DNA of 27,055 bases from Okeania sp. (GTDB taxonomy: Bacteria > Cyanobacteriota > Cyanobacteriia > Cyanobacteriales > Microcoleaceae). The stretch spans positions 1 through 27,055 of the forward strand of contig NZ_JAYKGW010000227.1 of assembly GCF_035285525.1 (NCBI RefSeq). Reading direction: 5' to 3'. Made by a program: the position numbers and the translations under genes. The notes beneath the pieces were generated by a model that did no database searches, was not told where the DNA came from, and was given only the letters and a program-made list of their open reading frames with translations. Within the stretch, counting starts at the first letter, position 1. Every line of letters starts with the position of its first letter. Shown here piece after piece: positions 4,603 through 22,018 of this stretch.

Positions 4603-4632
4603 TTATTAATTATTAATTATTAATTATTAATT
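4600..4632. repeat. STRR-type heptamer tandem repeat (TAATTAT x4.7)
   Basis: The array begins with the TAA stop codon of the binding-protein gene. Confidence 0.85.
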
Positions 4633-4722
4633 CCCTCTTCTTGTAAAGTCTAGTAGTGAACTGACACAGCTAAAACGGTGCAATAGTAGGGGCAGGTTTT
4701 AGCTATAATTTTAATGCTTACT

Positions 4723-5248: not shown

Positions 5249-5267
5249 ATTATATATAGTCAAATCT

Positions 5268-5468: not shown

Positions 5469-5755
5469 AATTTTTATTAGAGACAATTTATTTCAAAATA
5501 ATATCATCTGTAAAAAAACTGTAGGGGTTTGGTTTCCAAATCCCTTTGCGCTTGGGTTTGGAGGCCAAACCACTACTATAAAATCTGACAATCTATATTA
5601 GGATTGCTATACTTAACAAAAATCTATGACAAGAATTACCTAAACAAACCAAGAAACCGGGTTTATTGCCCTGATATTGTTGTTAAAACCACTAAATTTC
5701 GTTCATCAACCCGGTTTCTGTCTAGGTCCAGTATGAAAATTCCCAAAATGCTTCT

Positions 5756-6649
5756 ATGTATAATTCCCTTGAAAAAAGAGAAAAATTAACAGGATGGCTA
5801 TTAATTACACCAGCCATTATCATATTATTATTTGTATTTGCTTATCCAATTACTCGCGCTTTTTGGTTAAGTCTATTTACCCAAAATCTTGGTACAGAAT
5901 TAAAGCCTATTTTTTCTGGTTTAACCAACTACAACCGCATCTTAGCTGATGGTCGTTTTTGGCAAACTTTATCGAACACAACAATATTTACAACCTGCTC
6001 TATTTTCCTAGAATTAATATTAGGAATGAGCATTGCTTTAATCTTAGATAAATCATTCCGAGGTAGAGGTTTGGTTCGTACTATTAATCTGATTCCTTGG
6101 TCATTACCAACCGCAGTTATGGGGTTAGCTTGGGCATGGATTTTTAACGACCAATTTGGCATAGTTAATGACTTACTTTTACGGTTGGGATTAATAGCAG
6201 AAAAAATTACTTGGTTAGGAGATCCCTTCCGAGCAATGTGGGCAATGATTATTGCTGATGTTTGGAAAACAACCCCATTTATTGCTATTATTTTATTGGC
6301 AGGATTACAATCTATTTCTTCTGATTTATATGAAGCTCATGCTATTGATGGAGCTAACCCAATCCAAAGTTTTAAACAAATTACTATCCCCCTATTAATG
6401 CCACAAATAGTAATTGCTTTATTATTCAGATTTGCTCAAGCATTTGGCATTTTTGACTTAGTACAAGTAATGACCGGAGGGGGACCTGCTGGAGCAACAG
6501 AAACAATTTCTATCTATATTTATGCTACTATTAGACGTTATTTAGATTTCGGTTATGGAGCTTCTTTAGTTGTCGTAACATTTCTATTATTAATTCTGGT
6601 GGTAGCGATCGCTAGCATTACTACCCAGAAATTAAAAGTTAAAAATTAA
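5756..6649 (+). CDS. carbohydrate ABC transporter permease (MalF/UgpA-like)
   Basis: 297-aa ORF with about six hydrophobic segments. EAA-type loop YEAHAIDGANPIQSFKQITIPLL. Confidence 0.9.
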   Translation: MYNSLEKREKLTGWLLITPAIIILLFVFAYPITRAFWLSLFTQNLGTELKPIFSGLTNYNRILADGRFWQTLSNTTIFTTCSIFLELILGMSIALILDKSFRGRGLVRTINLIPWSLPTAVMGLAWAWIFNDQFGIVNDLLLRLGLIAEKITWLGDPFRAMWAMIIADVWKTTPFIAIILLAGLQSISSDLYEAHAIDGANPIQSFKQITIPLLMPQIVIALLFRFAQAFGIFDLVQVMTGGGPAGATETISIYIYATIRRYLDFGYGASLVVVTFLLLILVVAIASITTQKLKVKN

Positions 6650-6892
6650 AAGGCAAAAGTATCGGTAAAATTCAAGAACCTAGGGGTTTGGTCTCCAATT
6701 TTTCGGGAACCGTACCCTATACAAACTAAGAACTTTCCCCAATACTGATGGTACACCCTTATTCTCCAAAGCCAGTTGAATAGTTATAAATAACGAGGGA
6801 GGAGTCAGGAGTTAACCCACCCCTAACCCCTCCCAGGAGGGGAAAAAGAAGAAACAAGTTTTTTTATCATTGATTATCCGGACATGATATTA

Positions 6893-6913
6893 CTGATAAC
6901 TGATAACTGATAA
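6893..6913. repeat. STRR-type heptamer tandem repeat (CTGATAA x3)
   Basis: Direct reading. The array ends 9 nt before the ATG at 6923. The same repeat occurs in the gene-proximal orientation at 26112-26128, upstream of the minus-strand gene that ends at 25993. Confidence 0.85.
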
Positions 6914-6922
6914 CTGAAGAAA

Positions 6923-7777
6923 ATGTCTATCTCAAAAAATCAATCATCAATCAAAATAGGCAGAATAATTCTGTGGATAGGTGTAGTTTTAACTGTCATA
7001 TTTTGCCTAGCTCCTGTTTTATGGCAATTACTAACTTCCTTCAAAACTAATGAGGCAATATCAGCAGTTCCTAATGTCTACTTTCCTTCCCTCAACCAAC
7101 TAACTTTTGACCACTATCTCAGTCTCGGTTCGGATTTTCTGCGCTATATTTTTAATAGTGCTTTTGTTTCGATTATTTCCACAATAATTTGTTTAGGAAT
7201 AGGAGCGCCTGCTGCTTATACTTTAGCCCGATTAAAAATACCAGGAGAAAATATTATTATTGCCTCTGTTTTAATAGTCAGTCTGTTTCCTTATGTCTTG
7301 TTATTTTTAGGACTATTAGAAATTATTAGAACTCTTGGTTTAGGTAATAATTATATATCCCTAATTATTCCTTACACAGGCATTAATTTACCTCTAACAA
7401 TTCTAGTTTTAAGAAGCTTTTTTCAACAGTTACCAAAAGACATAGAAGACTCTGCCAAAATAGATGGTTATAACACAATTTCTATGTTGTGGAATATTGT
7501 TTTACCTCTAACAATTCCCGCATTAGTAACTACAGGAATTTTAACCTTTATTTTTGCTTGGAATGAATTTATTTTTGCCCTGACTTTCATTACTCGTTCA
7601 GAAATGTATACTATTCCCGTTGCAGTCGCTCAAATAGGTGGTACTTCTATATTTGAAATTCCTTATGGACCTATTGCTGCAGCCACAGTAACAGGTACAT
7701 TTCCTTTAGTAATTTTAGTATTAATCGCTCAACGGCGAATTGTTCAAGGTATTACAGCAGGTGCTGTTAAAGGTTAA
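6923..7777 (+). CDS. carbohydrate ABC transporter permease (MalG/UgpE-like)
   Basis: 284-aa ORF with multiple TM segments. EAA-type loop EDSAKIDGYNTISMLWNIVLPL. Confidence 0.9.
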   Translation: MSISKNQSSIKIGRIILWIGVVLTVIFCLAPVLWQLLTSFKTNEAISAVPNVYFPSLNQLTFDHYLSLGSDFLRYIFNSAFVSIISTIICLGIGAPAAYTLARLKIPGENIIIASVLIVSLFPYVLLFLGLLEIIRTLGLGNNYISLIIPYTGINLPLTILVLRSFFQQLPKDIEDSAKIDGYNTISMLWNIVLPLTIPALVTTGILTFIFAWNEFIFALTFITRSEMYTIPVAVAQIGGTSIFEIPYGPIAAATVTGTFPLVILVLIAQRRIVQGITAGAVKG

Positions 7778-7784
7778 CCTAGCC

Positions 7785-7816
7785 GTAGGTTGGGTTGAGG
7801 CAACGAAACCCAACAT
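7785..7816. repeat. Dispersed hairpin repeat GTAGGTTGGGTTG...AAACCCAACAT (possible terminator of the permease gene)
   Basis: Stem gttgggtt / aacccaac begins 8 nt after the stop codon. The same opening motif starts the 172-bp units at 10870 and 11042, and a degenerate copy lies at 8607-8626. Confidence 0.45.
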
Positions 7817-7970
7817 AGACTTACGCCAAGAAACCAGATTTCTCGTAGAAACCCGGTTTCTGGGTTCGCCTGCATAGAAATCATCTATTCTTTCCCCCTA
7901 CTCCCTACTCCCTCTTTTCTGTATATACAATGTTAAAATCAGAATATCAAATCATTATGGATATGAAAGT

Positions 7971-8207
7971 ATGAAACATCTAGACTTAGATGAAACCAAT
8001 ATTGACTTAACAGTAATTATTAACGAAATTGCTGCTAATCAGTCTGAAATTGTCATTACCCGCCAAGGTTTGCCAGTTGCTCGTATTATTCCTTATACTA
8101 TTTCTGACGCACCGACAAAAAATTATCCATTACGGGGAATGCCAATCAAAATTGCTGCTGATTTTGATGAACCGATGCCTGAACTTTGGGATGCTTTAGG
8201 AAAATGA
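7971..8207 (+). CDS. Phd/YefM-type antitoxin
   Basis: 78-aa ORF with a C-terminal ADFDEPMPELWDAL tail typical of cyanobacterial prevent-host-death antitoxins. It has a 4-nt ATGA overlap with the downstream PIN gene. Confidence 0.75.
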   Translation: MKHLDLDETNIDLTVIINEIAANQSEIVITRQGLPVARIIPYTISDAPTKNYPLRGMPIKIAADFDEPMPELWDALGK

Positions 8208-8599
8208 TTTTACTTGATACTCATGTTTGGTTATGGCTACTTCATAACCCCAGTCAATTATCGGAATCCGCCAAAATCGCAATTGATAGGGAAGAACCCC
8301 ATAATGGTTTGCTAGTATCGCCAATTTCGGTTTGGGAAATTGCGGTTAAATCAAGTATTGGTAAATTGATACTACCTTTACCCATTGATGAATGGTACAA
8401 TTTTGCTTCAACTCATTCTGGTATTGTAATTGAACCCCTGTCTCCACTGGATGCTATTGCCAGTACATCCTTACCTGAGACTTTCCATAAAGATCCAGCA
8501 GATAGAATTTTAGTAGCGATCGCCAGACGATACGGAATTGTTTTAGTAACTTGTGATGTCAAGATTTTGAACTATCCTCATGTCCAAACACTTTGGTAG
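8204..8599 (+). CDS. vapC: PIN-domain VapC toxin
   Basis: ATG at 8204 (the track start at 8186 is a TTG). Conserved acidic positions occur in LLDTHVW, VWEIAVK, HKDPADRILVA and VTCDVKI. Confidence 0.85.
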   Translation: MILLDTHVWLWLLHNPSQLSESAKIAIDREEPHNGLLVSPISVWEIAVKSSIGKLILPLPIDEWYNFASTHSGIVIEPLSPLDAIASTSLPETFHKDPADRILVAIARRYGIVLVTCDVKILNYPHVQTLW

Positions 8600-8624
8600 T
8601 GTAATAGCTGTAGGTTTGGTTGTT

Positions 8625-8818
8625 ATTGTTAAAGGAGGTAATCAATACCATGTTATCCTTCGCACAAAACCTCATTGAGGTAGGCAATGATTACGAATTT
8701 ATTGAGTTATGGGTAGAGCCAGCGGGAAATTTCTGAACGTGGTATTTGCATCCATTATGATGTTGAGGAATTTGAGGAGGAGTTGAAAAACTTCTCTATT
8801 TTTCTAAATATCCATTAA
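8625..8818 (+). pseudogene. Remnant of a second copy of the 10151-10730 toxin/immunity-like cassette
   Basis: 8625-8721 aligns by eye with 10448-10544 (end of the toxin-like ORF, the AAGGAGG site and the start of the immunity-like ORF). The remnant reads MLSFAQNLIEVGNDYEFIELWVEPAGNF then stops. A downstream piece, HYDVEEFEEELKN, resembles 9214-9250. Confidence 0.5.
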
Positions 8819-8844
8819 AATTAAGTAAATTTAGGATTATAATA

Positions 8845-9084
8845 ATGAGCAATACAATAGTTAGCGATAGAGGACAAATAACAATCCCTGAAGAAATTAG
8901 GAACTACCTTAAACTGAATGCAGGGAGTAAAATAGAATTCGTCATTGATGAACAGGGAGAAGTTAAAATAATTCCTCTAAAATTCTCTGTGGAAGACTTG
9001 TCCGGTATCCTACATCATCTGGGAATTGAACAAGCAACCATTAAGGATATGGAAAATGCAATCCAGGAGGCAGCTAATGATTGA
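8845..9084 (+). CDS. AbrB/MazE/SpoVT-family antitoxin
   Basis: 79-aa ORF with SDRGQITIPEEIRNYLKLNAGSKIEFVIDEQGEVKIIPL, a swapped-hairpin AbrB-type DNA-binding motif. It overlaps the following decayed PIN start. Confidence 0.8.
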   Translation: MSNTIVSDRGQITIPEEIRNYLKLNAGSKIEFVIDEQGEVKIIPLKFSVEDLSGILHHLGIEQATIKDMENAIQEAAND

Positions 9085-9272
9085 AGTTGATACCAATATT
9101 TTAAGTTCGCTATTTGACTAGAGATGATCAATTACAGTGGGAAAAAGCACTAGAGATTATTAGAGAAAATCAGCCATGTTTTGTTTCTAATGTGGATAGC
9201 CGTCTTTTATCTTATGATCTTGAGGAGTTTGAGGAAGACATTAAAACTTTGCAGGAAATGGGTAGGTTATGA
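9077..9272 (+). pseudogene. vapC: Decayed vapC (frameshifted, truncated) fused to a 3' remnant of the immunity-like gene
   Basis: MIEVDTNILSSLFD then a stop at 9119-9121. It continues in another frame as RDDQLQWEKALEIIRENQPCFVSNV (PIN N-terminal region). It then joins gtggatagccgtcttttatct (9192-9212), which matches 10693-10713 with one mismatch. Confidence 0.6.
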
Positions 9273-9379
9273 TTGTTATCAGTCTAATACAAACTTTAGT
9301 AAGCTACAACTCTGGGTAGCGATCGCTAATAATATGTTAAAATCCAAATAAGCCTATTTATTGTATTTGAAAATTAGTT

Positions 9380-9706
9380 ATGTCTAAAACATCTACAATT
9401 ACAGAACACATTGAAATTACTCCAGGAATTTGTGGTGGAAAACCTCGGATTGCTGGCCATCGAATTAGAGTAGAAGATATTGTTATCTGCCATGAAAAAA
9501 TGGGTTTTTCACCAGATGAAATTGTCTCTCAATATCCTAGTATTACTTTAGCTGATGTTTATGCTGCTTTGACTTATTATCACGATCATTTAGAAGAGAT
9601 TAGGCAGCAAATTTTGGAGGATGAAGAATTTGCTAGAGCAATGCAAGCTGAAACTCCTTCTTTAGTGGCAAAAAAATTACGAGAAAGTTATGGCAGAAAA
9701 GATTAA
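9380..9706 (+). CDS. DUF433-domain protein (antitoxin-like)
   Basis: 108-aa ORF with the ITPGICGGKPRIAGHRIRVEDIV signature of DUF433. It overlaps the next gene by 17 nt. Confidence 0.8.
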   Translation: MSKTSTITEHIEITPGICGGKPRIAGHRIRVEDIVICHEKMGFSPDEIVSQYPSITLADVYAALTYYHDHLEEIRQQILEDEEFARAMQAETPSLVAKKLRESYGRKD

Positions 9707-10025
9707 ATTTCATCTAGATGAAAATGCTCCTAATGCAATAGCTGGTGGTTTAAGGCGACGAAATATTGATGTAACTACTACTTCTGAGGCTAGTTTAATT
9801 TCTCTGTCAGATGAAGAACAATTGATATTTGCTACGAATCAAAATCGGGTTATTTTTACTCAGGATAGAGATTTTTTGCGACTGCATTATGCTGGTTTTT
9901 CACATAGTGGAATTGCTTATTGTGTTAAGGGCAGTCGTTCAATAGGTGAAATTTTACGCGGACTAATTCTGATTTGGGAAGTATTGGAACCTGAAGATAT
10001 GATTGGAAAAGTTGAGTTTTTGTAA
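9690..10025 (+). CDS. DUF5615-family PIN-like nuclease (toxin-like partner of DUF433)
   Basis: 111-aa ORF containing KFHLDENAPNAIAGGLRRRNIDV and FTQDRDF. The DUF433/DUF5615 pairing is a recurrent two-gene module. Confidence 0.7.
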   Translation: MAEKIKFHLDENAPNAIAGGLRRRNIDVTTTSEASLISLSDEEQLIFATNQNRVIFTQDRDFLRLHYAGFSHSGIAYCVKGSRSIGEILRGLILIWEVLEPEDMIGKVEFL

Positions 10026-10150
10026 TCTAAAAGGTTTTGCTAGAAAGCGATCGCTTCTAAAATCTGGTTGGTTTAGGAAGGAGTAATTGCCTCTTGATAA
10101 CAACTATTCTTAGCAAAAGATTGTATAATTTAGTAATGATGTAGATTTCC

Positions 10151-10501
10151 GTGAATGGTATTAACCGCGAATTAATTTCCCATCCGAGAACTAGCTTATT
10201 TGATAAACACCTTCCTGGTACGCCTCAAGTAGCAAGACTATTGAGGAAGGAAGGAAAAGCCCATGTTTTTAAAGATCGTGCTACAATGGAATTTGTCGTG
10301 GGGGCTATTATTCAAAGGGGAGAACTAACAGGAGTTGAGGATGAAAATGATGACTACGAACGTTATGGACTTTATTTTGACGAACCGATAGGTTATCAGA
10401 TTAGAGCAGATGGTAGCAGTATTCCACTTTATTATGCTGAAATAAAAATTGTTAAAGGAGGTAATTTATACCATGTTATCCCTCCCACAAAACCTCGTTG
10501 A
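10151..10501 (+). CDS. Hypothetical protein, possible orphan toxin C-terminal domain
   Basis: 116-aa ORF with only a GTG start and no obvious SD, so it may be 5'-truncated. It overlaps a small downstream ORF by 29 nt. I recognised no family. Confidence 0.45.
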   Translation: MNGINRELISHPRTSLFDKHLPGTPQVARLLRKEGKAHVFKDRATMEFVVGAIIQRGELTGVEDENDDYERYGLYFDEPIGYQIRADGSSIPLYYAEIKIVKGGNLYHVIPPTKPR

Positions 10502-10730
10502 GGTAGGCAATGATTGGGAATTTATTGAGTTATGGGTAGAGCCAATTGTTTTTCCGCCTCGCATTTTGATGTTAGCTGGTGGCAAACAAGGAAATTTTTG
10601 TATTTATGATGCTACTGCTAACTACAAACCTTTGTTTGAGAGCGCTATTTATGATGAAGCCCACTCGTGGTTAGTTGAAGATGATTATGAGCGGGTGGAT
10701 GGCCGTCTTTTATCTGGGGAATTTTTTTAG
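10473..10730 (+). CDS. Hypothetical small acidic protein, possible immunity/antitoxin partner
   Basis: ATG at 10473 is preceded by AAGGAGG (10455-10461); the track start at 10449 is a TTG. 85 aa. Its 5' and 3' ends recur as remnants at 8650-8736 and 9192-9212. Confidence 0.5.
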   Translation: MLSLPQNLVEVGNDWEFIELWVEPIVFPPRILMLAGGKQGNFCIYDATANYKPLFESAIYDEAHSWLVEDDYERVDGRLLSGEFF

Positions 10731-10869
10731 CATTGGGGCGATCGCTCCTCAAATCTGGTTTGTTGACGAAGGAGCGATCGCTCTTGTTTAAAAATTGGGA
10801 TGGGATATGAGGGAGCTGTTGCCTTTCGTTAACTAATATGTTATAGTTTATAATTTTCAGAAAATTGAT

Positions 10870-11214
10870 AGCTGTAGGTTGGGTTGTTTGCGTTAGCATT
10901 GCGGAGCATGGAACGTTAGCGGAGCTTATCCGTAGGATCAACCCAACATTAGTAGGGTTTTGTTGGGTTTCACTCCGTTCAACCCAACTACATTTGCGTA
11001 AGTCCTAATAAATCCGTATATCCGTGGCCAAATCACTGTCTAGCTGTAGGTTGGGTTGTTTGCGTTAGCATTGCGGAGCATGGAACGTTAGCGGAGCTTA
11101 TCCGTAGGATCAACCCAACATTAGTAGGGTTTTGTTGGGTTTCACTCCGTTCAACCCAACCTACATTTGCGTCAGTCCTAATAAATCCGTATATCCGTGG
11201 CTAAATCACTGTCT
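10870..11214. repeat. Near-identical tandem duplication of a 172/173-bp structured unit
   Basis: Copy 1 is 10870-11041 and copy 2 is 11042-11214. I see only three differences: one 1-nt indel and two substitutions. Each unit holds a long hairpin (gtaggttgggttg ... caacccaac) and a second hairpin (gttgggtttcactccgttcaacccaac). A third unit starts (agct) and overlaps the TAG stop of the gene ending at 11217. Confidence 0.9.
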
Positions 11215-11216
11215 AG

Positions 11217-12632
11217 CTAAAGCTTCTTAATCCCCCTTAAAGCCATAATTTTCTGAATAATAACAGTGAATCCTGCTCCCATAACACCAAAAAATAAACT
11301 TAAAAATAGGGTTTGAGTCAAAGGATGGAGATGAAAATCAGGCAACAGAGGTTTTTCCGGTTCTTGGGCAATTATATATGGAGCAACTGTGGCACCAACT
11401 GCTCCTGACGTCAAACCTACACCCATAATAGCTATGGTATTTTGGAAAGAGCGATCGCTTTCTGTTTGTTCGATATCTACTCTACCCTGAATAGCTGTCA
11501 TCGCTTTTTCTAGTAATGTAGCTCCATGCTGAAAGTAGCCTAAGTCCGATTGGAGTTGTTCTCTAAATAAGCGATAGTCTTCATCAAAAAATTGAGACAG
11601 GAAACTAAGATTTTCTCCTGGAAGTTGGCTTTGAATATCATTTATTTCTCGTTTATAGTTTTGGGCGTTGATATCAATAGTTAAGCGATAGTTATCTAGC
11701 TCACGAGTAAATTGATTATATGATAAATATTTTTGGGGAATCTCTTTTAAGTATTTTTTGAATTGATTTAATTCTTTTTCAGTTAGCTTTTTATCAACTG
11801 GCATTCCCTGGAAAATTTCCTGAATATAGGATTCAATAGCTAGATACTCCTTGCGAAGTACATCGTGGACTTGACGACTAAGTTTGTAAGCTGTGACTAC
11901 TTTGTTTAAATAACAAAATAGATTCACAAAGGATGAATAATAGTGGGTAAATTTCCTGTCGGTTTCAGTTTCACAGAATATCCAAACCACTACATGGCAG
12001 TAGTCCTTTCCTTGAGTAGGAACACCGTATTCAAAAATAGGACTGCCAAATAATTGACTTTCTCGATAAAAGTCAGGACAAGAATATTCGTTAGGAATAA
12101 ATCCTCTCAAACAATTATCTGCCAGTTCCCTAAGTTTTTGGCGATTTTGTAAAGATTTCCTCGGCAACCACTGTTTTTCCTGTGTGTACCAAACTGTTAA
12201 GAGCAAAGTTTGACCAAGAGAACTCCCTATTTCAGTAGGCATTAAGCATCCTGAAGGATTAAGAAGTTTCAGAAAGTTCGGGTTTAGGGGATTTGTTTTT
12301 TTCCCATTCTCGTCTAACTCGGGACGGCGAATATTGAGAGCGAGGGTGTAGGTATCGTGAATGCGGATGGGAGCAGCAACTCCCGTAATAGGGAGTTGTG
12401 TCCCATCTAGGAAGACTTGACTCTCAAAATGGAGAGCCACATCATCCTCTGTTTTATGTTTGAGCAAGTCAACGCGATATCCTATTTGCTCCTCAATTTC
12501 TAGGGGTTGGGTAAGGCCAAATTTCCGGGACAGAATGGTATTGCATTTGTCCCAGAGTAGGTTAGGGCGATCGCTTTCTTTTAAATGAAAAGCAAATAAA
12601 TGGACATTAGGAGCATAGACTTTTTTAATCAT
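11217..12632 (-). CDS. Candidate membrane effector: soluble N-domain, coiled coil, two C-terminal glycine-zipper TM helices
   Basis: Long ORF. The first ATG is at 12632 (MIKKVYAPNV) and overlaps the upstream stop as ATGATTAA; the track start at 12665 is a TTG. TM1 IAIMGVGLTSGAVGATVAPYII is at 11370-11435 and TM2 LTQTLFLSLFFGVMGAGFTVIIQ is at 11253-11321. A heptad-rich region precedes them. I recognised no family. Confidence 0.8.
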   Translation of the reverse strand: MIKKVYAPNVHLFAFHLKESDRPNLLWDKCNTILSRKFGLTQPLEIEEQIGYRVDLLKHKTEDDVALHFESQVFLDGTQLPITGVAAPIRIHDTYTLALNIRRPELDENGKKTNPLNPNFLKLLNPSGCLMPTEIGSSLGQTLLLTVWYTQEKQWLPRKSLQNRQKLRELADNCLRGFIPNEYSCPDFYRESQLFGSPIFEYGVPTQGKDYCHVVVWIFCETETDRKFTHYYSSFVNLFCYLNKVVTAYKLSRQVHDVLRKEYLAIESYIQEIFQGMPVDKKLTEKELNQFKKYLKEIPQKYLSYNQFTRELDNYRLTIDINAQNYKREINDIQSQLPGENLSFLSQFFDEDYRLFREQLQSDLGYFQHGATLLEKAMTAIQGRVDIEQTESDRSFQNTIAIMGVGLTSGAVGATVAPYIIAQEPEKPLLPDFHLHPLTQTLFLSLFFGVMGAGFTVIIQKIMALRGIKKL

Positions 12633-12999
12633 TGTTCTGATTTTGGTCAGGTTGTGCTGATTCAAATTCAGTTGAGTCGGTTCTTTCGGATAGTTTTTCC
12701 TTAACCTTTTCGCTCAATTCTGGGAAGGTATTGGTGATACGAGCAGATTCATTTGCCTTCGAGGGTGGGACTTTTGTCAACTCTTTAGTATTTTGTAGAT
12801 TCTCTAGTCTTATAAGAGCATCAACTATAGACGGTCTTGTTTTACACCAATCTCCAAGAATGAGGTCGGCATTTTTTGGGGGATCATTCTCTAGGGGAGC
12901 CAAGGTTTGCTGCAAGTCTTGGAGGTCAGCAGTAGAAAACAGTTCAGGCTCGGTTTCTAAAAGAAGGGGGAAATTTTGGAGAAAAGGGTTAGTAATCAT
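12625..12999 (-). CDS. Small acidic hypothetical protein (operon member)
   Basis: 124-aa ORF with ATG start. The N-terminal half is acidic and the tail is low-complexity (SERTDSTEFESAQPDQNQNND). It lies 75 nt downstream of the CHAT gene and is translationally coupled to the next gene. Confidence 0.6.
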   Translation of the reverse strand: MITNPFLQNFPLLLETEPELFSTADLQDLQQTLAPLENDPPKNADLILGDWCKTRPSIVDALIRLENLQNTKELTKVPPSKANESARITNTFPELSEKVKEKLSERTDSTEFESAQPDQNQNND

Positions 13000-13074
13000 T
13001 TTTAATCAAGATTTTAAATTATAAGTTGACTGGTGATGCTTTTGAGTCAAATGGACTGAACAAAAGCTTAAAGC

Positions 13075-16000
13075 TTACTTTCCAACAGTGCAGAAAGCTG
13101 CCCAGTGGTAAGGATCTTGGTAGAGTTGTCTGTCCGAAGGAAGGAAATATAGATATCCTTGAATCCTTTGGGCAAGCTCTTCTTCTAATTTTAACTTACT
13201 TGTCCACTTTTGTAGTTCTGCTACTGTAACATCCCGCAACCATAGTTGAGCTTGCTTGAGAGCCATAGCAACAGTTAGGCCAGACTTGAGGTTTTGATAA
13301 AACTTGATGAGTAAAAAAGCTGCGGATACTTGATTCACTGACCACAAACTGCTGACAACATTTGACGCACCTGCATAGAGGAAAGCACTGGGTAAACCAA
13401 TATATTCATCACTCCAGGATGTTAAGTCAATCAATCCTGTTTCACAAGCAGAGAGGGTTGCGAGGCGACATTGATTGAGGTTGAATCCAAAGATTTCTGC
13501 GAGAGTAAGTCTCCCATCTTTTTGAACATCATCTTTAGCTAGAGAAAGTGCAGAGGCATTGGCTATACCTAAGTTAAAGTTGCCATGACAGGAAAAATGA
13601 ATACAGTGGGATGACTGGAGGTGGGAGTTAGTTTTGACTTTTGCTTTCTTAGCATCTTTTCCAACTAAGACATCGACTGAATCAAAGTTGGAAAGAATTG
13701 CTTGTACTTCTATGTCTGCATAGATTAGATCCTCTGTCGGGTTTTGAACAGCAAACAGTTGGCTGAAGTAGGGACGTTCTCGTTTTTGAGTAAGTTGCAA
13801 TAGTTGGTTACTAGGAGCATAACTTACTCCTCCACTAAAGCGCTCGATAAGCAGATCGCCATTTGCTAGGGGCATAGCATGGAGAGGAAATAGATGTAGG
13901 TAGCGATGAGGAATCAGGATAAGACGGTTACACTTAATTCCTTGTTTGTCAAAGATGTTATCTATTGTTGTTAAGAGGCGATCGATTTCTAGGATATCAG
14001 CCAAATCTTTAAGACTAGAAGCTAAATTATTTCTCCACTGCTTTTTCTGCCGACGATACCCATCTAAATAGTCACCTGCCCAATCAATTAAAGACTTAAG
14101 TTCTTCAGCGGATGATTCTTGAACTATAGGTTGAACGCCATTGTTAGTTACGATAAAAGTTAATATTTTATCTTTAACAAGATACCATTGGATAATGACA
14201 GTCTGTTCGTCAATAAGATTTTGAATATCTCTATAGGAAATTAGTTCTACCCTCTGAGTTAGGTTGAAACTGGGATCTATACGTTGAATTTGATCTAGTA
14301 CCTCATTTAGCTGCTGTTGTGACTCCTGTAATTCTTGCTGTAGTCGCTTCTCTGAATTTTCTGACGCTCGTCTCTGCCTATTTAATAGTTGAAACTCATT
14401 TCCTGATAGTTGCTTTCTATCTATTTGTAACCGTTTTTCCAGTGATGTTATATTTCGCCGTAGCGAGTCTAGCTGAGTAATTATTTCTTGGGGAATATTC
14501 CCTTTTGGATAAAGATCGCTTCTGGCTAGACGCTCCACTAGGTTACGAGTTTTACTGCGCTCCACAATTTCGATGGCTTTATCAACCTGTCCTAGATTAA
14601 TGTATGCTTGCACCTGATTTTCATAAACCTCCATTGCCCCTTCCATAATCTCTTGGCGACGCTCATCAGTGTTTACCCAACTGCGGCTGATTTCGGCCGC
14701 AATCATGGCTGTTTCATAATTTTCAGTTGCTAGTTGCCAATTTCCCTTATCAAAGTATAAGTCACCTAATGTGTAGGCAGTTATAAAATGGTTAGAGGGA
14801 TTTGCTTCAATAGTGTAAATTTGAAGAGCTTTTTGCAAGCTAGCAATAGCAAATTCGATATTTTCTGCTTTGTCTCCTTTGATTCTGTCCCTGTAGGCAG
14901 TGCTGATATTATTTTGAATTCTTGCCCAGTCGTAGGGAAAGTTATTTTTTGTGTAAATTTGGAGAGCCTGTTCATATGCAGCAATAGCGAATTCAATATT
15001 TTCTGCTTTGTCTTCTTTGATTCTCTTTGCGTAAGCAGTGCCGATATTGTTTTGAGTGCTTGCCCAGTCGTAAGGAAAGTTGTTTTGTGTGTGAACATGG
15101 AGCGCTTGTTCGTATGCAGCAATAGCGGATTCAATATTTTCTGCTTTCTCTCCTATGATTCTATGGGAGTAGGCAATACCAAGGTTGTTTTGAGTGCTTG
15201 CCCAGTTGTCAGGAAAGCTGTTTTCAGTGAAAACTTGGAGAGCTTGTTCGTATGCAACAATAGCAGATTCGATATTCTCTGATTTGTTTCCTTTGATTCT
15301 GTCAGTGTAAGCACTGCCAAGATTGTTTTGAGTTTCTGCCCAGTTGTATGGGAAGTCAATTTTGTCATTAACTTGGAGAGCTTGTCCGTATGCAGCAATA
15401 GCAAATTCAATGTTCTCTGCTTTATCTCCTTTGATTCTGTCAGTGTAAGCATTCCCAAGATTGTTTTGAGTTTCTGCCCAGGGGTGGGGGTACTGAGTTT
15501 TAGTGCGAACCTGGAGAGCTTTTTTATATGCACTAATAGCAGATTCAATATTTTCTGCTTTGTCTCCTCTGATTCTTTTTTTGTAAGCACTCCCAAGATT
15601 GTTTTGAGTAGATGCCCATTCAATACGGAACTTAGTTTTGGTGTAAACCTGGAGAGCTTCTTGATGTAAATTAATTGCAAATTCGATGTTCTTTGCTTTG
15701 TTGCCTCTGATTCTGCGACTGTAGGCAACCCCGAGATTGTTCTTAGTCATTGCCCACTGCTTGGGAAACTTGTTTTTGGTGCGAACTTGAAGAGCTTGTT
15801 CGTATGCAGCAATAGCAAATTCAATATTCTCTGCTTTGTTGCCTCTGATTCTGTTTCTGTAGGCCATACCAAAATTGTGCTTAATTTTTGCCCATTTTTC
15901 TGGATACCTCTTTCTGGTAAGGATTGTTTCTGCTATATGATAACCTGCGATTGCAATTTCTACATTAACTGCTCTATTTCCCCGAGTAAATTTCATTATG

Positions 16001-16374
16001 TGGAAGGAAAACTCCCAAATTGCTTCAGCAATGCGTTCGGCAGTTTCCGGTTTAGCTTCTGGTTTAACTTCAGAAAATACAGAAGTTGCCCAGATTTTCA
16101 AGGTATCAATAAAGTCATCATCAAGCTCTTGTAGTAATACCTTGACAGATTGATCCCCCCTCACATCCCCTCTACTCTCAAGAATCCTTTGTAATATTTC
16201 AACCAAAAAATCTAGCTGAGATTTAAGGTGATCTGGTAATTTTTCTCTGGTTTCAGAGCTTGCCTTTAAATTCTTGAAATTCAAGTCTACAGCCAAAAAT
16301 CTGTCCTGTAGAAGTGAAGGTTTTAAAATGATTGCTATAGGTAGGAAAATATCGTGCAAACTTTCTTTTAACAT
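13075..16374 (-). CDS. TPR-repeat CHAT-domain (caspase-like) protease
   Basis: 1099-aa ORF with ATG start. It has nine 46-aa repeats ([32 protein letters not shown]...), a coiled coil (LEKRLQIDRKQL...QQELQESQQQLNEVLDQIQ) and a C-terminal CHAT domain. The His motif is IHFSCHG (His930 codon 13585-13587) and the Cys motif is TLSACETG (Cys977 codon 13444-13446). Confidence 0.95.
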   Translation of the reverse strand: MLKESLHDIFLPIAIILKPSLLQDRFLAVDLNFKNLKASSETREKLPDHLKSQLDFLVEILQRILESRGDVRGDQSVKVLLQELDDDFIDTLKIWATSVFSEVKPEAKPETAERIAEAIWEFSFHIMKFTRGNRAVNVEIAIAGYHIAETILTRKRYPEKWAKIKHNFGMAYRNRIRGNKAENIEFAIAAYEQALQVRTKNKFPKQWAMTKNNLGVAYSRRIRGNKAKNIEFAINLHQEALQVYTKTKFRIEWASTQNNLGSAYKKRIRGDKAENIESAISAYKKALQVRTKTQYPHPWAETQNNLGNAYTDRIKGDKAENIEFAIAAYGQALQVNDKIDFPYNWAETQNNLGSAYTDRIKGNKSENIESAIVAYEQALQVFTENSFPDNWASTQNNLGIAYSHRIIGEKAENIESAIAAYEQALHVHTQNNFPYDWASTQNNIGTAYAKRIKEDKAENIEFAIAAYEQALQIYTKNNFPYDWARIQNNISTAYRDRIKGDKAENIEFAIASLQKALQIYTIEANPSNHFITAYTLGDLYFDKGNWQLATENYETAMIAAEISRSWVNTDERRQEIMEGAMEVYENQVQAYINLGQVDKAIEIVERSKTRNLVERLARSDLYPKGNIPQEIITQLDSLRRNITSLEKRLQIDRKQLSGNEFQLLNRQRRASENSEKRLQQELQESQQQLNEVLDQIQRIDPSFNLTQRVELISYRDIQNLIDEQTVIIQWYLVKDKILTFIVTNNGVQPIVQESSAEELKSLIDWAGDYLDGYRRQKKQWRNNLASSLKDLADILEIDRLLTTIDNIFDKQGIKCNRLILIPHRYLHLFPLHAMPLANGDLLIERFSGGVSYAPSNQLLQLTQKRERPYFSQLFAVQNPTEDLIYADIEVQAILSNFDSVDVLVGKDAKKAKVKTNSHLQSSHCIHFSCHGNFNLGIANASALSLAKDDVQKDGRLTLAEIFGFNLNQCRLATLSACETGLIDLTSWSDEYIGLPSAFLYAGASNVVSSLWSVNQVSAAFLLIKFYQNLKSGLTVAMALKQAQLWLRDVTVAELQKWTSKLKLEEELAQRIQGYLYFLPSDRQLYQDPYHWAAFCTVGK
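14790..15985. repeat. Intragenic 138-bp (46-codon) tandem repeat array, about 9 units
   Basis: The ENIE(F/S)AI motif recurs at residues 137/183/229/275/321/367/413/459/505 of the CHAT protein, exactly 46 aa apart. DNA-level similarity between units generates several stop-free shadow ORFs on both strands. Confidence 0.85.
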
Positions 16375-16389
16375 ATTAATTACTACATA

Positions 16390-16490
16390 AATAATTTTCT
16401 GAATAGAGAAAGCTTCTTTTACAGATCATCGCGAAAACTTTGTTTTAGTGCCTCAATAAATTTCTGAATAGAGAAAGCTTCTTTTACAGA
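16390..16490. repeat. 36-nt direct repeat pair (16390-16425 and 16455-16490, one mismatch) at the junction of the ClpN-TPR and CHAT genes
   Basis: aataa(t/a)tttctgaatagagaaagcttcttttacaga is read twice, 65 nt apart. See the finding at 16374-16490. Confidence 0.9.
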
Positions 16491-17903
16491 ACGTTGACTA
16501 TTGATAAAGTTTTCAAGACTTGTTTCTTGTGTTTTACTAAAAATGTTTGTATAGTATTCGGCTTCGCTAGGTTTTGAGGACATCTCCTGCCAATACCTGA
16601 AAGAAAATTTTCCTGTCTTATCTAGGTTTGAGCGAGCTCTGGACAAGTTCCGTTTAGTGGCTTTGCACTTTTCAGGGGGGTCTTGTTTGTCATAAACAGA
16701 TAAAGCTAATTGATAGGCATGAACAGCTTTTTTCAGATTCTCAGTTTTATTGTCAATTCTTTGAATATAAGCATCGCTAAGATTACATTGAGTTTCTGCC
16801 CAATCAACCGGGTAATCCGCTTTAGTATAAACTTTCAGAGCTTCTAGGAATGCAGCAATAGCAGATTCAATGTTTTGTGCTTTGTCTCCTTTAATTCTGC
16901 TGCTGTAGGCAAGGCCAAGATTATTTTGAGTCATTGCCCAGTCGATAGGAAGGTTGTTTTGGGTACGAACTTCCAAAGATTTTTTGTATGCAGCAATGGC
17001 AAATTCAATATTTTCAGCTTTATCTCCAATGATCCTGTTAGTGTAGTAGCTATGGCCGAGATTGTGTTGAACAATTGCCCAAATTTCAGGATGATAGTTG
17101 GGACTCAAGAATGTGGACATTATTTCATAACCTGCAATGCTAATTTCTACATTAGCTGCTTTATTGCCCAAAGGAAACTCCCTAATGAGGTTACTGAAGC
17201 CGAAAATAAATGTAGCAAAATTTTCCACTACACTCACCTCTGCTTCCGACATAGTAGTTGCAAGATTTCGTAATACGTTAGCAAAGTTAAGATCGAGTTT
17301 ATCCAAATTAGCTTCTAGGAATGGATAAACTACTTCGGGGTTGCCATAGCTTTTTAGGGTAATCTGCAATACCTCCGACAAAAAATCCTGATAATCTTGA
17401 GGTGAGTAATTAGATGAAGTAACAGGTTGTGGATTTTCTTTCCTCTCGAATAGTTCAACAAAGCTCACATGAGTAATTTCATTGAAAATTTCTACTGGTT
17501 GTACCCCCATTTTTTCAAAGATTTTGACTTCTATTCCTTTTGGGAGATCGTTAGTTAAACCTAACAACACTGATAACAAATTTTCCGTGCAGACATTTTG
17601 GGCTTTTGAGCGTCTCGCCTCTTCTAAAGCTAACTCTAGAATTTTTTTAGCTCTTGGACTAAAAGGTATTTCTTCAGTATTTCTGCCTCCAGGCCCTCTA
17701 CCAACAATTTTCTCTACCTGAACACGGGCATCCTTCAGATTTATTCCCAGAGATTTGAGAACCTGTGCAGCTATGCCAGTATCTTCCGCAATCAATCCTA
17801 AAAGAATATGCTCTCCCCCAACAAAATTATGTCCCATACGTTGAGATTCTTGTTGGGCAAGCATAATCGCCTTAATCGCTTTTTCACTAAATCGCTCAAA
17901 CAA
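16419..17903 (-). CDS. ClpC-like N-terminal (Clp R) domain fused to a TPR-like repeat scaffold; no AAA+ module
   Basis: 494-aa [73 protein letters not shown] closely resembles the start of cyanobacterial ClpC as I remember it. It starts with TTG at 17903, 8 nt after a GGAGG (17912-17916). Residues from about 175 onward parallel the N-terminal module of the CHAT protein, followed by four 46-aa repeats. Confidence 0.9.
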
Positions 17904-17965
17904 TTTTCCTGCCTCCCGTTTCGTTATCTCAGTTTCCTAGTTTATATGAAAGTTATTCAACTATT

Positions 17966-18029
17966 ATGACAGCCTAGAAGGCTGTGTTACAATTTTATAG
18001 CTATGACAGCCTAGAAGGCTGTGTTACAA
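17966..18029. repeat. Twin 27-nt hairpin units (ATGACAGCCTAGAAGGCTGTGTTACAA x2)
   Basis: Units are at 17966-17992 and 18003-18029. The stem is ACAGCC/GGCTGT. The same twin recurs at 18463-18527. Confidence 0.85.
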
Positions 18030-18044
18030 AAGTTTTAAATTTAA

Positions 18045-18183
18045 TTAAGCAATAGTTAAAACAGAATATTGAACAATTTTTGGTAATTCAATTATTACAA
18101 AATAACCAGGAGGATAAAGATATTCTTATCCAGTTTCATCAAGTATTATTAAATCACCATCTTTTTTGCATCTTTATCAATCA
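18045..18183 (-). pseudogene. Decayed duplicate of the 77-aa gene at 18543-18776
   Basis: It aligns with 18543-18680. It reads ...KKDGDLIILDETG(stop)EYLYPPGYFVIIELPKIVQYSVLTIA, against DGDLRIVDKSGEDYLYSVDYFVIIELPKIVQDSVLTIA in the intact copy. There is also an upstream frameshift. Confidence 0.6.
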
Positions 18184-18206
18184 GTTAAAATAACTTAAGT
18201 TTCAAT

Positions 18207-18381
18207 TTAAAGACTTGTTTTGTTGGTGAGTAGGTTTAATTGTTGTGGAAATAATTTGTCTGCCACTAGCTGCTTGTTTTTTTCTAAATCTTCAACCATA
18301 GCGTGTAAATTATAATTAAAAGATTTAGCATATTCTTCTCGGTATTTATAAATTTCTGCTAATACTTCATCATGCCACATA
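18207..18381 (-). pseudogene. Possible frameshifted small gene (MWHDEVL / EIYKYREEYAKSFNYNLHAMVEDLEKNKQ...)
   Basis: The ATG at 18381 has an AGGAG 12 nt upstream, but the frame stops after 11 codons. Removing one T near 18360-18361 would give a continuous 57-codon ORF ending at 18207. Confidence 0.35.
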
Positions 18382-18462
18382 ACTTATTTAATCTCCTATT
18401 AGCTTCAGTTGATTTTGTTTATCCATAATTACAGCGGATTGCAGATTAGTATGGTACAGATT

Positions 18463-18527
18463 ATGACAGCCTGGAAGGCTGTGTTACAATTTTATAGCTG
18501 ATGACAGCCTGGAAGGCTGTGTTACAA
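18463..18527. repeat. Twin 27-nt hairpin units (ATGACAGCCTGGAAGGCTGTGTTACAA x2)
   Basis: Units are at 18463-18489 and 18501-18527, directly downstream of the 77-aa gene. They are part of a duplication of roughly 0.5 kb matching 17966-18183. Confidence 0.85.
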
Positions 18528-18542
18528 AAGTTTTAAACTTAA

Positions 18543-18776
18543 TTAAGCAATAGTTAAAACAGAATCTTGCACAATTTTTGGTAATTCAATTATTACAAAA
18601 TAATCAACAGAATAAAGATAATCTTCTCCACTTTTATCAACTATTCTTAAATCGCCATCTTTTGCTGCTTCTTCATCAATTAAAGCTACATAAATTTTAT
18701 GTAATTCCAAAGAAGCAGGATAATCTTTATTATTAATACAAACTGCAAATTTAGTTTCTGATTTCAGATTATTCAT
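18543..18776 (-). CDS. Small conserved hypothetical protein
   Basis: 77-aa ORF with ATG start. A decayed paralog 0.5 kb away implies it is a real gene family. No function recognised. Confidence 0.55.
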   Translation of the reverse strand: MNNLKSETKFAVCINNKDYPASLELHKIYVALIDEEAAKDGDLRIVDKSGEDYLYSVDYFVIIELPKIVQDSVLTIA

Positions 18777-18833
18777 AATTTTTAACCCAAATAAAATTAT
18801 AGATTACTTTTGAATTTTGACTTGAACATAACT

Positions 18834-19604
18834 CTACATTTGCCAAGCTTTCCAAAATGTATAAATAGCCAAAATTACCAACAAACTCTGAAAAGCAAAA
18901 CTGACAAATGAACTAGGCAACTTCGGCAGAAAACGAGTGCTAATTTGAGCGCCGATCAAACCTCCAAAACCTAAAAACAAGCCTCCGAAAAACACAATAT
19001 TGCCATTCAAATAATGACCGAAAGCAGCAGAAATAGAAGTAACAACAATTACACCTAAACTTGTTTGAATAGCAACTTTTATAGGTTCCCCAAGTAAAAG
19101 AATTTGCAGAGGTACCATTATTACTCCACCACCAACCCCAAATAAACCAGCTAATAATCCTCCTGTTCCCCCAGTAATAATTCTAGCCAGAGTAGCATTT
19201 CCCCATTGCTGTTTTTCACCATCTTTTTGTCTAGCTATAACCCGCTTGCGTAACCCGAACAAATAAATATTAATCAACATTAGTAAACCAAAACCCAATA
19301 ATAATAAACTCGAAGATAATTGTTCCGCCAAATAAACCCCTATTTGGGCAGCGAATAATGCTGGCAATGCTAACAAAAGAACTTTTTGAGGTTGAATGAA
19401 ACCCATACGCCAATTTTGCAGAGTACCAGAAGTGGCTGTAATTGTAATCGCTAAAGCGCTAGTTGCGACTGCTTGTATAGGTTCATATCCCAAAGTTACT
19501 AACAGCGGAACCATAACTGTACCACCGCCAATTCCTAAAAATCCAGCGAGAATACCGGAACCAAGACCACCTAATCCTAAAATCAAAAGGTTTGCGGGAA
19601 TCAT
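18834..19604 (-). CDS. TauE/SafE (TSUP) family membrane permease
   Basis: Polytopic ORF with duplicated Gly-rich motifs GFLGIGGGTVMVPLL and GLFGVGGGVIMVPL. The first ATG is at 19604; the track start at 19610 is a TTG. Confidence 0.85.
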   Translation of the reverse strand: MIPANLLILGLGGLGSGILAGFLGIGGGTVMVPLLVTLGYEPIQAVATSALAITITATSGTLQNWRMGFIQPQKVLLLALPALFAAQIGVYLAEQLSSSLLLLGFGLLMLINIYLFGLRKRVIARQKDGEKQQWGNATLARIITGGTGGLLAGLFGVGGGVIMVPLQILLLGEPIKVAIQTSLGVIVVTSISAAFGHYLNGNIVFFGGLFLGFGGLIGAQISTRFLPKLPSSFVSFAFQSLLVILAIYTFWKAWQM

Positions 19605-21349: not shown

Positions 21350-22018
21350 TATAACTGAACTTCCCCTTTGACAAAAGGCTACAATTTATGCTGTACAAGA
21401 GATAGATCGAATTATCCACCCCTATTTACTGACTACAATGAGTGTAGAGTTCTGAAATTATTTATAGGGCTTACCCATGGACTCTACTGGTAGGGTGTGT
21501 TTCGCGTTCCGCAAAGCTCCGCTTTATATGTCGGCTCAAGCGTCGAAACGCTACGCGACATGAAAAGCCTACAACGCACAACGCACCAACACTCTATATA
21601 TAGAGCTTTTGCGTAAGTCCTGATCTATAATATCTAACTGCTTTTTTAGGACTTACGCAGGAATGCTATTGGTAGGGTGCGTTTTGCGTTCCGCAAAGCT
21701 CCGCTTTATATATCGGCTCAAGGGCCGAAACGCTGCGCGACATGAAAAGCGCACAACACACAACGCACAAATACTCTATATATACTGCCTTTGCGTAAGT
21801 CCTGTTTTTGTTGTAGTGAGCGCGAGTCAAAATACATGACTATATTTTAGCAGATACTCCCTGTAAGGTTATATTAAGAAATATTACCAAAATACATGGC
21901 TACACAAAAAAAAGGTGGTCGCGGAGCGCGGAACGGAGTTCTATCGCTCTATCATAAGTAAGATTGATAAAAGTTTTAGAGCTTTATAGTACATTTAGCA
22001 GGGGGAAGTTCAGGTATA
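21350..22018. mobile_element. Possible composite non-autonomous element bounded by 17-nt inverted repeats
   Basis: tataactgaacttcccc (21350-21366) against ggggaagttcaggtata (22002-22018), with one mismatch. The interior contains the 182-bp repeats and no long ORF. Confidence 0.35.
21488..21804. repeat. Tandem 182-bp structured repeat, about 1.7 units
   Basis: Units start at 21488 and 21670 (tggtagggtg(t/c)g...). Each has the long hairpin ggtg(t/c)gtt...aacgcac and the core cgttccgcaaagctccgc, and ends in ttgcgtaagtcctg. The hairpin gcgtaagtcct / aggacttacgc lies at the unit junction. Confidence 0.8.

Follow-up and report, generated by a model that had tools for sequence, protein, structure and literature searches.

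A stretch of 27,055 nucleotides (nt) of Okeania sp. (NCBI RefSeq assembly GCF_035285525.1, contig NZ_JAYKGW010000227.1, positions 1 to 27,055), referred to below as the window, carries four co-directional minus-strand genes, g1 to g4, which bring together a TPR-CHAT protease, a small acidic protein and a protein with two transmembrane (TM) helices. In coding order, these are g1 (16419-17903; 494 residues, TTG start), encoding a ClpN-helical-TPR protein; g2 (13075-16374; 1099 residues), encoding the protease; g3 (12625-12999; 124 residues), encoding the acidic protein; and g4 (11217-12632; 471 residues from its ATG), encoding the membrane protein, a putative effector. Gaps of 44 nt and 75 nt separate g1 from g2 and g2 from g3, respectively, and g3 and g4 overlap by the 8 nt ATGATTAA. 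All of these coordinates, gaps and the overlap had been listed in a first-pass annotation made from the sequence alone, and all were reproduced by our open reading frame (ORF) analysis, so that the observation of the locus is confirmed. The same annotation proposed that the four genes form a protease-triggered conflict system with ClpN as its sensor. Here we show that the conserved unit consists of g2, g3 and g4, its core components, and we consider what such a unit may do.

The g2 product begins with a helical module (15970-16257, on the minus strand like every feature of g1 to g4 given below), continues with nine 46-residue TPR-like repeats (14695-15969) and a coiled-coil linker (13975-14577), and ends with the CHAT domain (13081-13965). 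Pfam matches comprise CHAT (2.4e-54), TPR_12 (2.8e-25), TPR_10 and, weakly, Peptidase_C50 (4.3e-7). The period of 46 residues is apparent in the protein, in which eight ENIE-type motifs follow one another at that distance, and in the DNA, where a 138-nt tandem repeat is present in 7.6 copies. The helical module, the nine repeats, the CHAT domain and the catalytic residues His930 (codon 13585-13587) and Cys977 (codon 13444-13446) lie where the first-pass annotation had placed them, and the His/Cys dyad is invariant in 63 of 63 module-associated CHAT domains. The TPR-CHAT proteins range from about 800 to 2,593 residues across loci, with a highly variable repeat array; such length variation is what would be expected of a ligand-binding surface. 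They start with one to four helical units of about 70 residues (QQAYLNLIQ.LL.CP.GEE..IL.AN..LLD..F; for example at 5750-9532 of locus L038), for which Pfam yields no match; in g1 and g2, the helical module represents a diverged version of this unit. The only CHAT structures matched by g2 in a sequence search of the PDB were Csx29 chains, at about 1e-4.

The first-pass description of g3 as an acidic protein holds, with 22 D/E against 12 K/R residues, and its sequence contains no hydrophobic segment. No family match was obtained for g3 in Pfam, NCBIfam, PADLOC or PHROGs, no recurring family emerged when 26 members of its family were compared with Pfam at E-values up to 1, and a g3 profile retrieved only noise and designed helical bundles from PDB sequences. 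The most conserved columns are W51, R/K72, E73, K76 and N90; among 69 sequences, E73 is kept in 66, N90 in 68 and R/K72 in 59. Most of these residues fall within a linear motif, [RK]-E-[ILV]-x-K-[VIL]...N-x-[FY], located directly after a linker rich in insertions and deletions and represented in Okeania by K72-E-L-T-K-V77 (12769-12786) and N90-T-F92 (12724-12732). Judging from this pattern, the motif could be a docking or cleavage site, which it resembles. Separase, a relative of CHAT proteases, cleaves after ExxR.

A soluble N-domain, long helices and two C-terminal TM helices, as previously proposed for g4, were recovered by AlphaFold2 (pLDDT 81.8, pTM 0.75; 90.0 and 0.88 for the N-domain alone) and hydropathy. 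The model comprises an α/β domain (residues 1-230; 11943-12632), three long helices (232-275, 285-336 and 343-403; 11424-11939) and hydrophobic helices at about 399-420 and 437-460, corresponding to TM1 (11373-11438) and TM2 (11253-11324), the latter followed by a basic C-terminal tail. TM1 is rich in glycine (GVGLTSGAVGA), in a glycine-zipper pattern kept across the family. The g4 product is thus modelled as an inner-membrane protein with both termini in the cytoplasm and with its last stalk helix continuous with TM1. Its family is large, with 424 matches among 90%-identity clusters and 978 representatives at 50%-identity clustering, 461 of them below 1e-30; every named host is a cyanobacterium and every protein name is "hypothetical protein", which is also the RefSeq name of g3 homologues. 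Neither Pfam, NCBIfam nor PHROGs contains a match to g4, comparison of 20 family members with Pfam at E-values up to 1 revealed no recurring family, and the precomputed Pfam annotation is empty for all 120 g4 relatives among the matches listed. A PDB sequence search again returned noise and designed helical bundles only, and Foldseek found nothing below 1e-3 in PDB and BFVD for either the full-length model or the N-domain. The folds suggested for the N-domain by its matches (orf-virus chemokine-binding protein, YwmB, SRPBCC/TBP-like) were rejected at TM-scores of at most 0.3.

Comparison of related loci delimits the conserved unit. A scan of species-representative genomes (one genome per species, 185,579 genomes) retrieved 329 loci encoding a g4 relative, the best 80 of which were analysed with our own ORF calls and with phmmer and hidden Markov model (HMM) searches. 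The unit is a cassette of three genes in the order TPR-CHAT protease, acidic g3 of about 115 residues and two-TM g4 of about 480 residues. Among the 57 loci whose sequence extends 4 kb or more upstream of g4, a CHAT gene lies within 1.5 kb on the same strand in 49, a g3 gene is present in 49, and both are present in 47; one HMM iteration brought the number of loci with a g3 homologue between CHAT and g4 to 69 of 80. The order is the same in the divergent loci L086 and L087 (g4 scores of 2e-36 and 9e-44), on a conjugative Nostoc plasmid (62% identity) and on plasmid p4 of Planktothrix agardhii (27% identity). Since the arrangement recurs in dozens of independent genomes, it does not result from chance. 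Moreover, the three proteins co-diverge, with Spearman coefficients of 0.74 for CHAT and g4, 0.82 for g3 and g4, and 0.71 for CHAT and g3 (n=41). The claim that four families co-occur in conserved order therefore stands for CHAT, g3 and g4 and falls for g1, which is missing from 80 of 80 loci.

The genes of the cassette are also tightly coupled. Many loci show a 4- or 8-nt overlap of g3 with g4, others one of 11-19 nt between CHAT and g3, and in L012 g3 is fused onto the C-terminus of the TPR-CHAT protein. In Scytonema sp. NIES-4073 (L045), a g3-like domain (residues 499-598) is fused behind TM2 of g4 (10001-11866) and is followed by a second, divergent g4 (12138-13628), all behind one CHAT gene, a tandem arrangement which indicates that the g3-g4 pair duplicates as a unit. 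An apparent CHAT-g4 fusion in L019 retains CHAT positions 1 to 128 out of 299 and no more, and was set aside as a deletion product. Several copies of the cassette can occur in one genome, three of them in Scytonema NIES-4073, and two or three tandem TPR-CHAT paralogues are found in L004, L007 and L013. Genes for g4 are present on 14 cyanobacterial plasmid records, 13 of which are predicted to be conjugative or mobilizable. Copies flanked by insertion sequence (IS) elements were observed, as were IS-disrupted or decayed ones (L019, L024, L059, L062 and L081), and the hosts are biased to filamentous, differentiating cyanobacteria.

The remaining gene, g1, has a different history. Its product was correctly described beforehand as a ClpN domain followed by a helical module and four repeats with no AAA+ module, as Pfam and NCBIfam show: the ClpN domain (17460-17903) precedes the helical module (17169-17411), the repeats, the last of which is degenerate (16614-17168), and a tail of 64 residues (16422-16613). 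The domain matches Pfam Clp_N at 2e-20 (residues 16-68 and following) and the ClpC1 N-domain structure 5gui end-to-end at 5.5e-52. The ClpB, ClpA and ClpK models align with nothing beyond the N-domain and score far under their cut-offs, and no AAA+ module was detected with Pfam or NCBIfam; g1 is therefore no unfoldase, in contrast to the Clp/Hsp100 unfoldases, which have AAA+ modules. Residues 173-432 align with residues 55-318 of g2 at 47% identity, which makes the helical module and the repeats common to both proteins. The public call for g1 (P0145, 481 residues) starts at an internal ATG 13 codons downstream; the TTG at 17903 is favoured here on the basis of homology to the ClpC N-terminus (MFERF...) and of the Shine-Dalgarno sequence GGGAGG (17912-17917), read from the sequence 8 nt 5' of this codon.

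Searches with the ClpN domain did not detect it in any of the 80 related loci, and those with the whole of g1 found ClpN joined to the helical module and repeats in a few proteins, namely P0150, P0172, P0215, P0237 and the Trichodesmium protein P0156. In L081 (P0150) and L082 (P0172), a ClpN-helical-TPR segment is followed by an ISAZ013 transposase gene (L081) or a frameshift (L082), and then by coiled-coil/CHAT, g3 and g4 homologues; in these two loci, the TPR-CHAT protein itself has ClpN at its N-terminus. A repeat search showed that the leader which immediately precedes the start of g2 recurs within the 3' end of g1 (46-nt direct repeat without strand assignment, 16380-16425 and 16445-16490, 89% identical), such that a 10-residue peptide is read twice; this looks like a rearrangement scar. 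The C-terminal 64 residues of g1 have no homologue in any locus examined. In L001, the closest relative (Okeania sp. SIO3B5; g4 87% identical), the position of g1 is occupied by a different chimeric ORF (1422-2402), in which a helical module and 1.5 TPR-like repeats run on into the final helix and the two TM helices of a g4-like protein. Considering the missing protease half, the degenerate fourth repeat, the orphan tail, the copied g2 leader, the chimera of L001 and the tandem TPR-CHAT paralogues of other loci, we conclude from these sequence comparisons that g1 is probably a truncated derivative of a tandem ClpN-TPR-CHAT paralogue, a local accessory outside the conserved system. The gene may still be expressed, given its good ribosome-binding site and the presence of the same four-gene arrangement in an independent read set (L093), and, if functional, its product could equip the TPR scaffold with a bait resembling the ClpC N-domain.

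The ClpN domain of g1 looks close enough to ClpC for a recent capture. It is shared with the N-domains of ClpC and ClpB, with ClpT and with mycobacterial ClpC2, and proteins consisting of ClpN alone (ClpC2, a double Clp-N motif protein) are among the PDB matches; unlike these stand-alone proteins, ClpN fused to TPR or TPR-CHAT was seen only in a small cyanobacterial group. ClpC2 proteins act as decoys for antibiotics that target ClpC1, and a bait or decoy role of ClpN in the Okeania and Trichodesmium variants can be entertained as speculation. Rare ClpN fusions in another conflict system are noted by Kaur et al. (PMC7159879). A stand-alone double-ClpN protein, whose second domain shares 77% identity with that of g1, is encoded in L092 (GCA_013332755.1, JAAUYF010027224.1, 2116-3003); its gene is followed by a DUF433-like ORF and adjoins an SBP_bac_1 gene. 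ClpN proteins 43-46% identical to that of g1 are also encoded by mycobacteriophages and uncultured phages (NC_011273.1, Myrna gp251; NC_054714.1, Phabba; PHROG 35667); none of these matches comes from a cyanophage.

Taken together, we consider it somewhat probable that g2, g3 and g4 constitute a protease-gated membrane effector cassette of mostly filamentous cyanobacteria, serving defence or cell death. In such a model, g2 would be a cytoplasmic CHAT protease whose TPR-like array and helical N-module form its ligand-binding, regulatory part. Translational coupling would keep g3 in fixed proportion to g4, and both would reside at the membrane as a stoichiometric pair. Binding of a trigger, either an invader protein or a stress cue, to the TPR scaffold would activate the CHAT dyad; g2 would then cut g3 at [RK]-E-[ILV]-x-K-[VIL], or alternatively g4, thereby relieving the inhibition of g4. 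Once freed, g4, presumably as oligomers, would permeabilise or depolarise the membrane, and the ion leak would stop the growth of the affected cell. A conflict role is suggested by the multiple copies, the carriage on plasmids, the IS-flanked, interrupted and decayed copies, the toxin-antitoxin-type neighbours and the filamentous hosts. With respect to g2, g3 and g4, the protease-triggered membrane-effector logic of the first-pass annotation was right in outline and offers the most economical reading. A bolder version, which we regard as a long shot, would see in g4 a large, unrecognised family of oligomeric channels of CorA architecture, shut by g3 and opened by a g2 cut of g3 at a separase-like E-x-x-K for altruistic shutdown in multicellular cyanobacteria, with the Okeania/Trichodesmium scaffold having captured a host ClpC N-domain as a decoy, tripped when phage factors or natural products attack the Clp machinery.

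Several observations weigh against this cassette model. In five loci (L032-L035 and L069), g4 is found with no CHAT or g3 gene within 10 kb, a TPR fragment only being present in L069. The hosts of lone g4 genes are Halomicronema, Oscillatoria princeps and Oscillatoria sp. PCC 10802 and relatives, and the gene occupies a conserved chromosomal site, with a RecQ-like helicase gene shortly downstream. The existence of a lone g4 in one lineage implies that g4 is no unconditional toxin, and g4 may have a role of its own. The resemblance of g4 to ion channels is also loose. Among the 17 best Foldseek matches of the full-length protein, nine belong to CorA, ZntB or MRS2 (probability 0.6-0.87, best E-value 6.4e-3, TM-scores of at most 0.25), and g4 has its parts in the same order as these proteins: after a cytoplasmic α/β domain, a stalk helix leads without a break into TM1, and a short loop on the outer side connects TM1 to TM2, which a basic C-terminus follows. 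Unlike in CorA, the loop (QEPEKPLLPDF) has no GMN motif, the scores are below significance, no Pfam CorA match is found, and the N-domain alone, for which Foldseek finds no matching fold in PDB or BFVD, retrieves no CorA; the modelled likeness thus weakly suggests an architectural resemblance only. The candidate cleavage site in g3, a pattern of sequence conservation, should be taken as a lead. PADLOC-DB v2 contains no significant match for any of the four proteins (none at all for g1 to g3; for g4, an insignificant one to Csx20, 0.0076, 14.6 bits). Finally, the neighbourhoods are not clear defence islands: they mix mobile and toxin-antitoxin genes with ABC (ATP-binding cassette) ATPases and housekeeping genes, and the 148 sampled neighbour ORFs of 66 loci include Uma2 (4), DUF4351 (4), PDDEXK_2 (3), PIN (3), TnpB (2) and AbiLi (2).

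Several described systems nonetheless provide points of comparison. EACC1 and Pepco, each part of a two-gene module, are small proteins encoded beside caspase-like or trypsin-like proteases that form pores after cleavage (Evans et al. 2025, PMC12642450), and other conflict systems are biased to multicellular bacteria (Kaur et al. 2020, PMC7159879). The cassette shares with EACC1 and Pepco an adjacent protease, a non-enzymatic membrane-active protein, glycine-rich TM segments and enrichment in multicellular bacteria including cyanobacteria (PMC7159879, PMC12642450). It differs in that EACC1 (a single TM helix) and Pepco (a β-barrel) are themselves pores of about 115 residues, whereas g3 has no hydrophobic segment and the membrane protein is the separate, two-TM g4 of 470 residues. 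An assignment to the EACC1/Pepco modules was rejected on account of the missing hydrophobic segment in g3 and of the absence of Pfam matches to EACC1 or Trypco in the g3 and g4 family members scanned. Bacterial gasdermin systems with caspase-like or CHAT proteases likewise place a caspase-fold protease beside a membrane effector that is inactive until cleaved; gasdermin is a soluble pro-toxin, whereas g4 would be an integral membrane protein from the outset, and g4 matched no gasdermin in PADLOC or in Foldseek (full-length and N-domain), for which reason this assignment was dropped.

In Craspase (type III-E), gRAMP-Csx29 cleaves Csx30, and the cassette resembles it in combining TPRs with CHAT, in the His/Cys dyad and in the proximity of a presumed substrate. 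The TPRs of g2 form a 46-residue array N-terminal to CHAT, and neither g3 nor g4 is related to Csx30 or Csx31. Assignment to type III-E was rejected: there is no gRAMP/Cas7-11, no array and no Csx30 or Csx31 match in PADLOC or NCBIfam, and the NCBIfam Csx29 model, whose cut-off is 300 bits, reaches 83.7 bits on g2 and covers its CHAT region only (662-1030). With neither gRAMP/Cas7-11 nor a CRISPR array, activation of g2 is not RNA-guided. A CorA-family membrane effector activated by SAM-AMP (S-adenosylmethionine-AMP) operates in type III CRISPR defence (PMC10600005) and provides an immune membrane-effector precedent for a g4-type protein; it is controlled by a nucleotide, whereas control of the cassette would rest on a protease and a small protein. 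By analogy with CATRA, EACC1, Pepco, gasdermin and the logic of Craspase, the design of the cassette would fall within a known kind, that of protease-licensed effectors. The first-pass label "undescribed" is apt insofar as no known defence-system model was matched in PADLOC, and may go too far insofar as the literature already covers the class of caspase/TPR-linked ternary modules (CATRA, with its small protein CATASP) and protease-activated pore formers such as EACC1 and Pepco (PMC12642450, PMC8195603, PMC12657218).

By composition, the closest named system is CATRA, with which the cassette can be compared through the descriptions given in citing papers. CATRA stands for "Caspase and TPR repeat-associated" (PMC12657218) and denotes a caspase-dependent ternary conflict system (PMC8195603), and CATASP, the "CATRA-associated small protein", is a related uncharacterised module (Evans et al., PMC12642450). 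As far as these descriptions go, both CATRA and the cassette consist of a co-encoded caspase-fold protease with TPRs and small and larger partners, are phyletically restricted and have a predicted conflict role. The cassette could then be CATRA, with g4 as the CATRA-N or CATRA-C protein and g3 as CATASP, and would already have been described computationally, an identity that we find rather unlikely. The name fits the make-up of a protease with TPRs and larger and small associated proteins, the qualifiers "ternary", "caspase-dependent" and "phyletically restricted" (PMC8195603; PMC12657218) would fit as well, and PMC12642450 counts CATASP among protease-associated effector modules. Nevertheless, CATRA is said to carry variable enzymatic effector domains such as GT4 (PMC8195603), and none was seen in the cassette. 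The 26 g3 and 20 g4 family members show no recurring Pfam family, an objection that presupposes CATRA-N, CATRA-C and CATASP models in Pfam; NCBIfam gives no match either, and the empty Pfam annotation of the 120 listed g4 relatives and the RefSeq name "hypothetical protein" point in the same direction. No named CATRA locus was found beside the CHAT genes of Streptomyces clavuligerus and Chlorohelix plasmids.

Other readings change the output of the cassette or the number of its parts. The stand-alone g4 genes at a conserved chromosomal site, the absence of a hydrophobic segment in g3, the best-conserved part of which is a short linear motif, and the bias of the hosts to filamentous, differentiating cyanobacteria would suit a regulatory proteolytic switch, in which g4 tethers or senses and a CHAT cut frees either a piece of g3 or the cytoplasmic portion of g4 to reprogramme the cell towards arrest or differentiation, not lysis, like Csx29-Csx30-RpoE or CalpL-CalpT-CalpS. 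The characterised type III CRISPR CHAT and Lon modules do cleave regulators (PMC12642450). We consider such a switch quite unlikely nonetheless: no DNA-binding or sigma-factor-type domain was detected in g3, g4 or their neighbours, and genes that sit on plasmids, occur in multiple copies and frequently decay look more like conflict genes than like developmental regulators. The original four-gene proposal would make g1 an obligatory sensor whose ClpN domain detects phospho-arginine-tagged or misfolded proteins, an adaptor or a ClpC-aimed factor and hands the signal to g2. It draws support from the intact g1 ORF with its strong Shine-Dalgarno sequence 44 nt upstream of g2, from the identical arrangement in L093, from the recruitment of ClpN to the module in L081 and L082 and to Trichodesmium TPR proteins, from the closeness of the domain to ClpC1 and from the ClpN-only ClpC2 proteins among the PDB matches. 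The absence of ClpN from 80 of 80 loci, the different chimera at the g1 position of L001 and the degenerate repeat, orphan tail and duplicated leader at the 3' end of g1 make it unlikely. Neither a four-gene system nor ClpN as the sensor of the family was thus borne out, ClpN being part of the TPR-CHAT protein where it recurs in L081 and L082. A housekeeping function unconnected with conflict, in which g4 is a CorA-like ion channel whose abundance a dedicated protease controls, would agree with the CorA, ZntB and MRS2 matches and with the location of the cassette among ABC-importer genes in the window and in L084. We hold it to be very unlikely, as g4 has no GMN motif, the structural scores are below significance, the distribution is patchy (329 loci among the 185,579 species-representative genomes) and the genes are plasmid-borne, IS-flanked, often decayed and present in multiple copies; ABC genes, with 5 of 148 neighbour ORFs, were judged not unusual for a common gene family, and the ABC-transporter linkage in the window, L084 and L092 was accordingly taken as background.

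In the window, an ABC importer's genes for a substrate-binding protein and two permeases (3253-7777) are followed on the plus strand by toxin-antitoxin-type genes for a PIN protein (8186-8599), a DUF433 and DUF5615/PIN_10 pair (9380-10025) and a DUF6972 protein with a 93-residue ORF (10151-10730), all identified with Pfam and all outside the module; then come the operon, a TauE gene and a gene for a MalK-type ABC ATPase. The operon therefore separates the substrate-binding protein and permease genes of the importer from its ATPase gene, and its location in toxin-antitoxin-type DNA between ABC-importer genes, as proposed in the first-pass annotation, is supported by the Pfam matches of the flanks. 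Equally, the absence of cas genes (window ORFs) and of a CRISPR array (TRF) extends across the 27,055-bp window, in which no tRNA or Rfam match was found. The DUF6972 gene and its small partner ORF are convergent to g4, and DUF6972 occurs twice among the 148 sampled neighbour ORFs elsewhere. A 172-nt unit is present twice, 98-100% identical, directly after the g4 stop (10869-11218), and the stretch from g1 to the TauE gene contains a duplication of about 500 nt (17963-18680), in which the 40-nt hairpin unit ATGACAGCCTAGAAGGCTGTGTTACAA is present four times; further repeats are a 182-nt unit in 1.9 copies (21461-21804) and a 57-nt unit in 2.9 copies at the window end (26886-27055). A bounded mobile element around the operon was considered and rejected, as the left and right flanks have no repeat in common, each containing only local tandem duplications. 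In another neighbourhood, that of L083 (Dulcicalothrix desertica PCC 7102; 14841-19555 and 1-1825), the cassette has on either side repeated pairs of genes for a UvrD-like helicase and a protein of about 343 residues, one of the helicase pairs being preceded by an 817-residue HSP70-domain protein; these pairs may be another conflict-type system.

The g4 family, with 978 clusters at 50% identity and 329 loci in species-representative genomes, is carried by ecologically important bloom- and mat-forming cyanobacteria, and two of the three proteins of the cassette have no database name. If g4 is an effector released by CHAT, it would represent a new arrangement among the growing number of protease-licensed death effectors, in which a resident two-TM protein is associated with a separate small partner, and would extend the parallel between bacterial caspase-like proteases and pyroptosis. 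The invariant dyad of g2 and the sharply conserved motif of g3 indicate specific mutants, and the ClpN fusions are unusual in that their sequence lets a bait-like sensor head be guessed.

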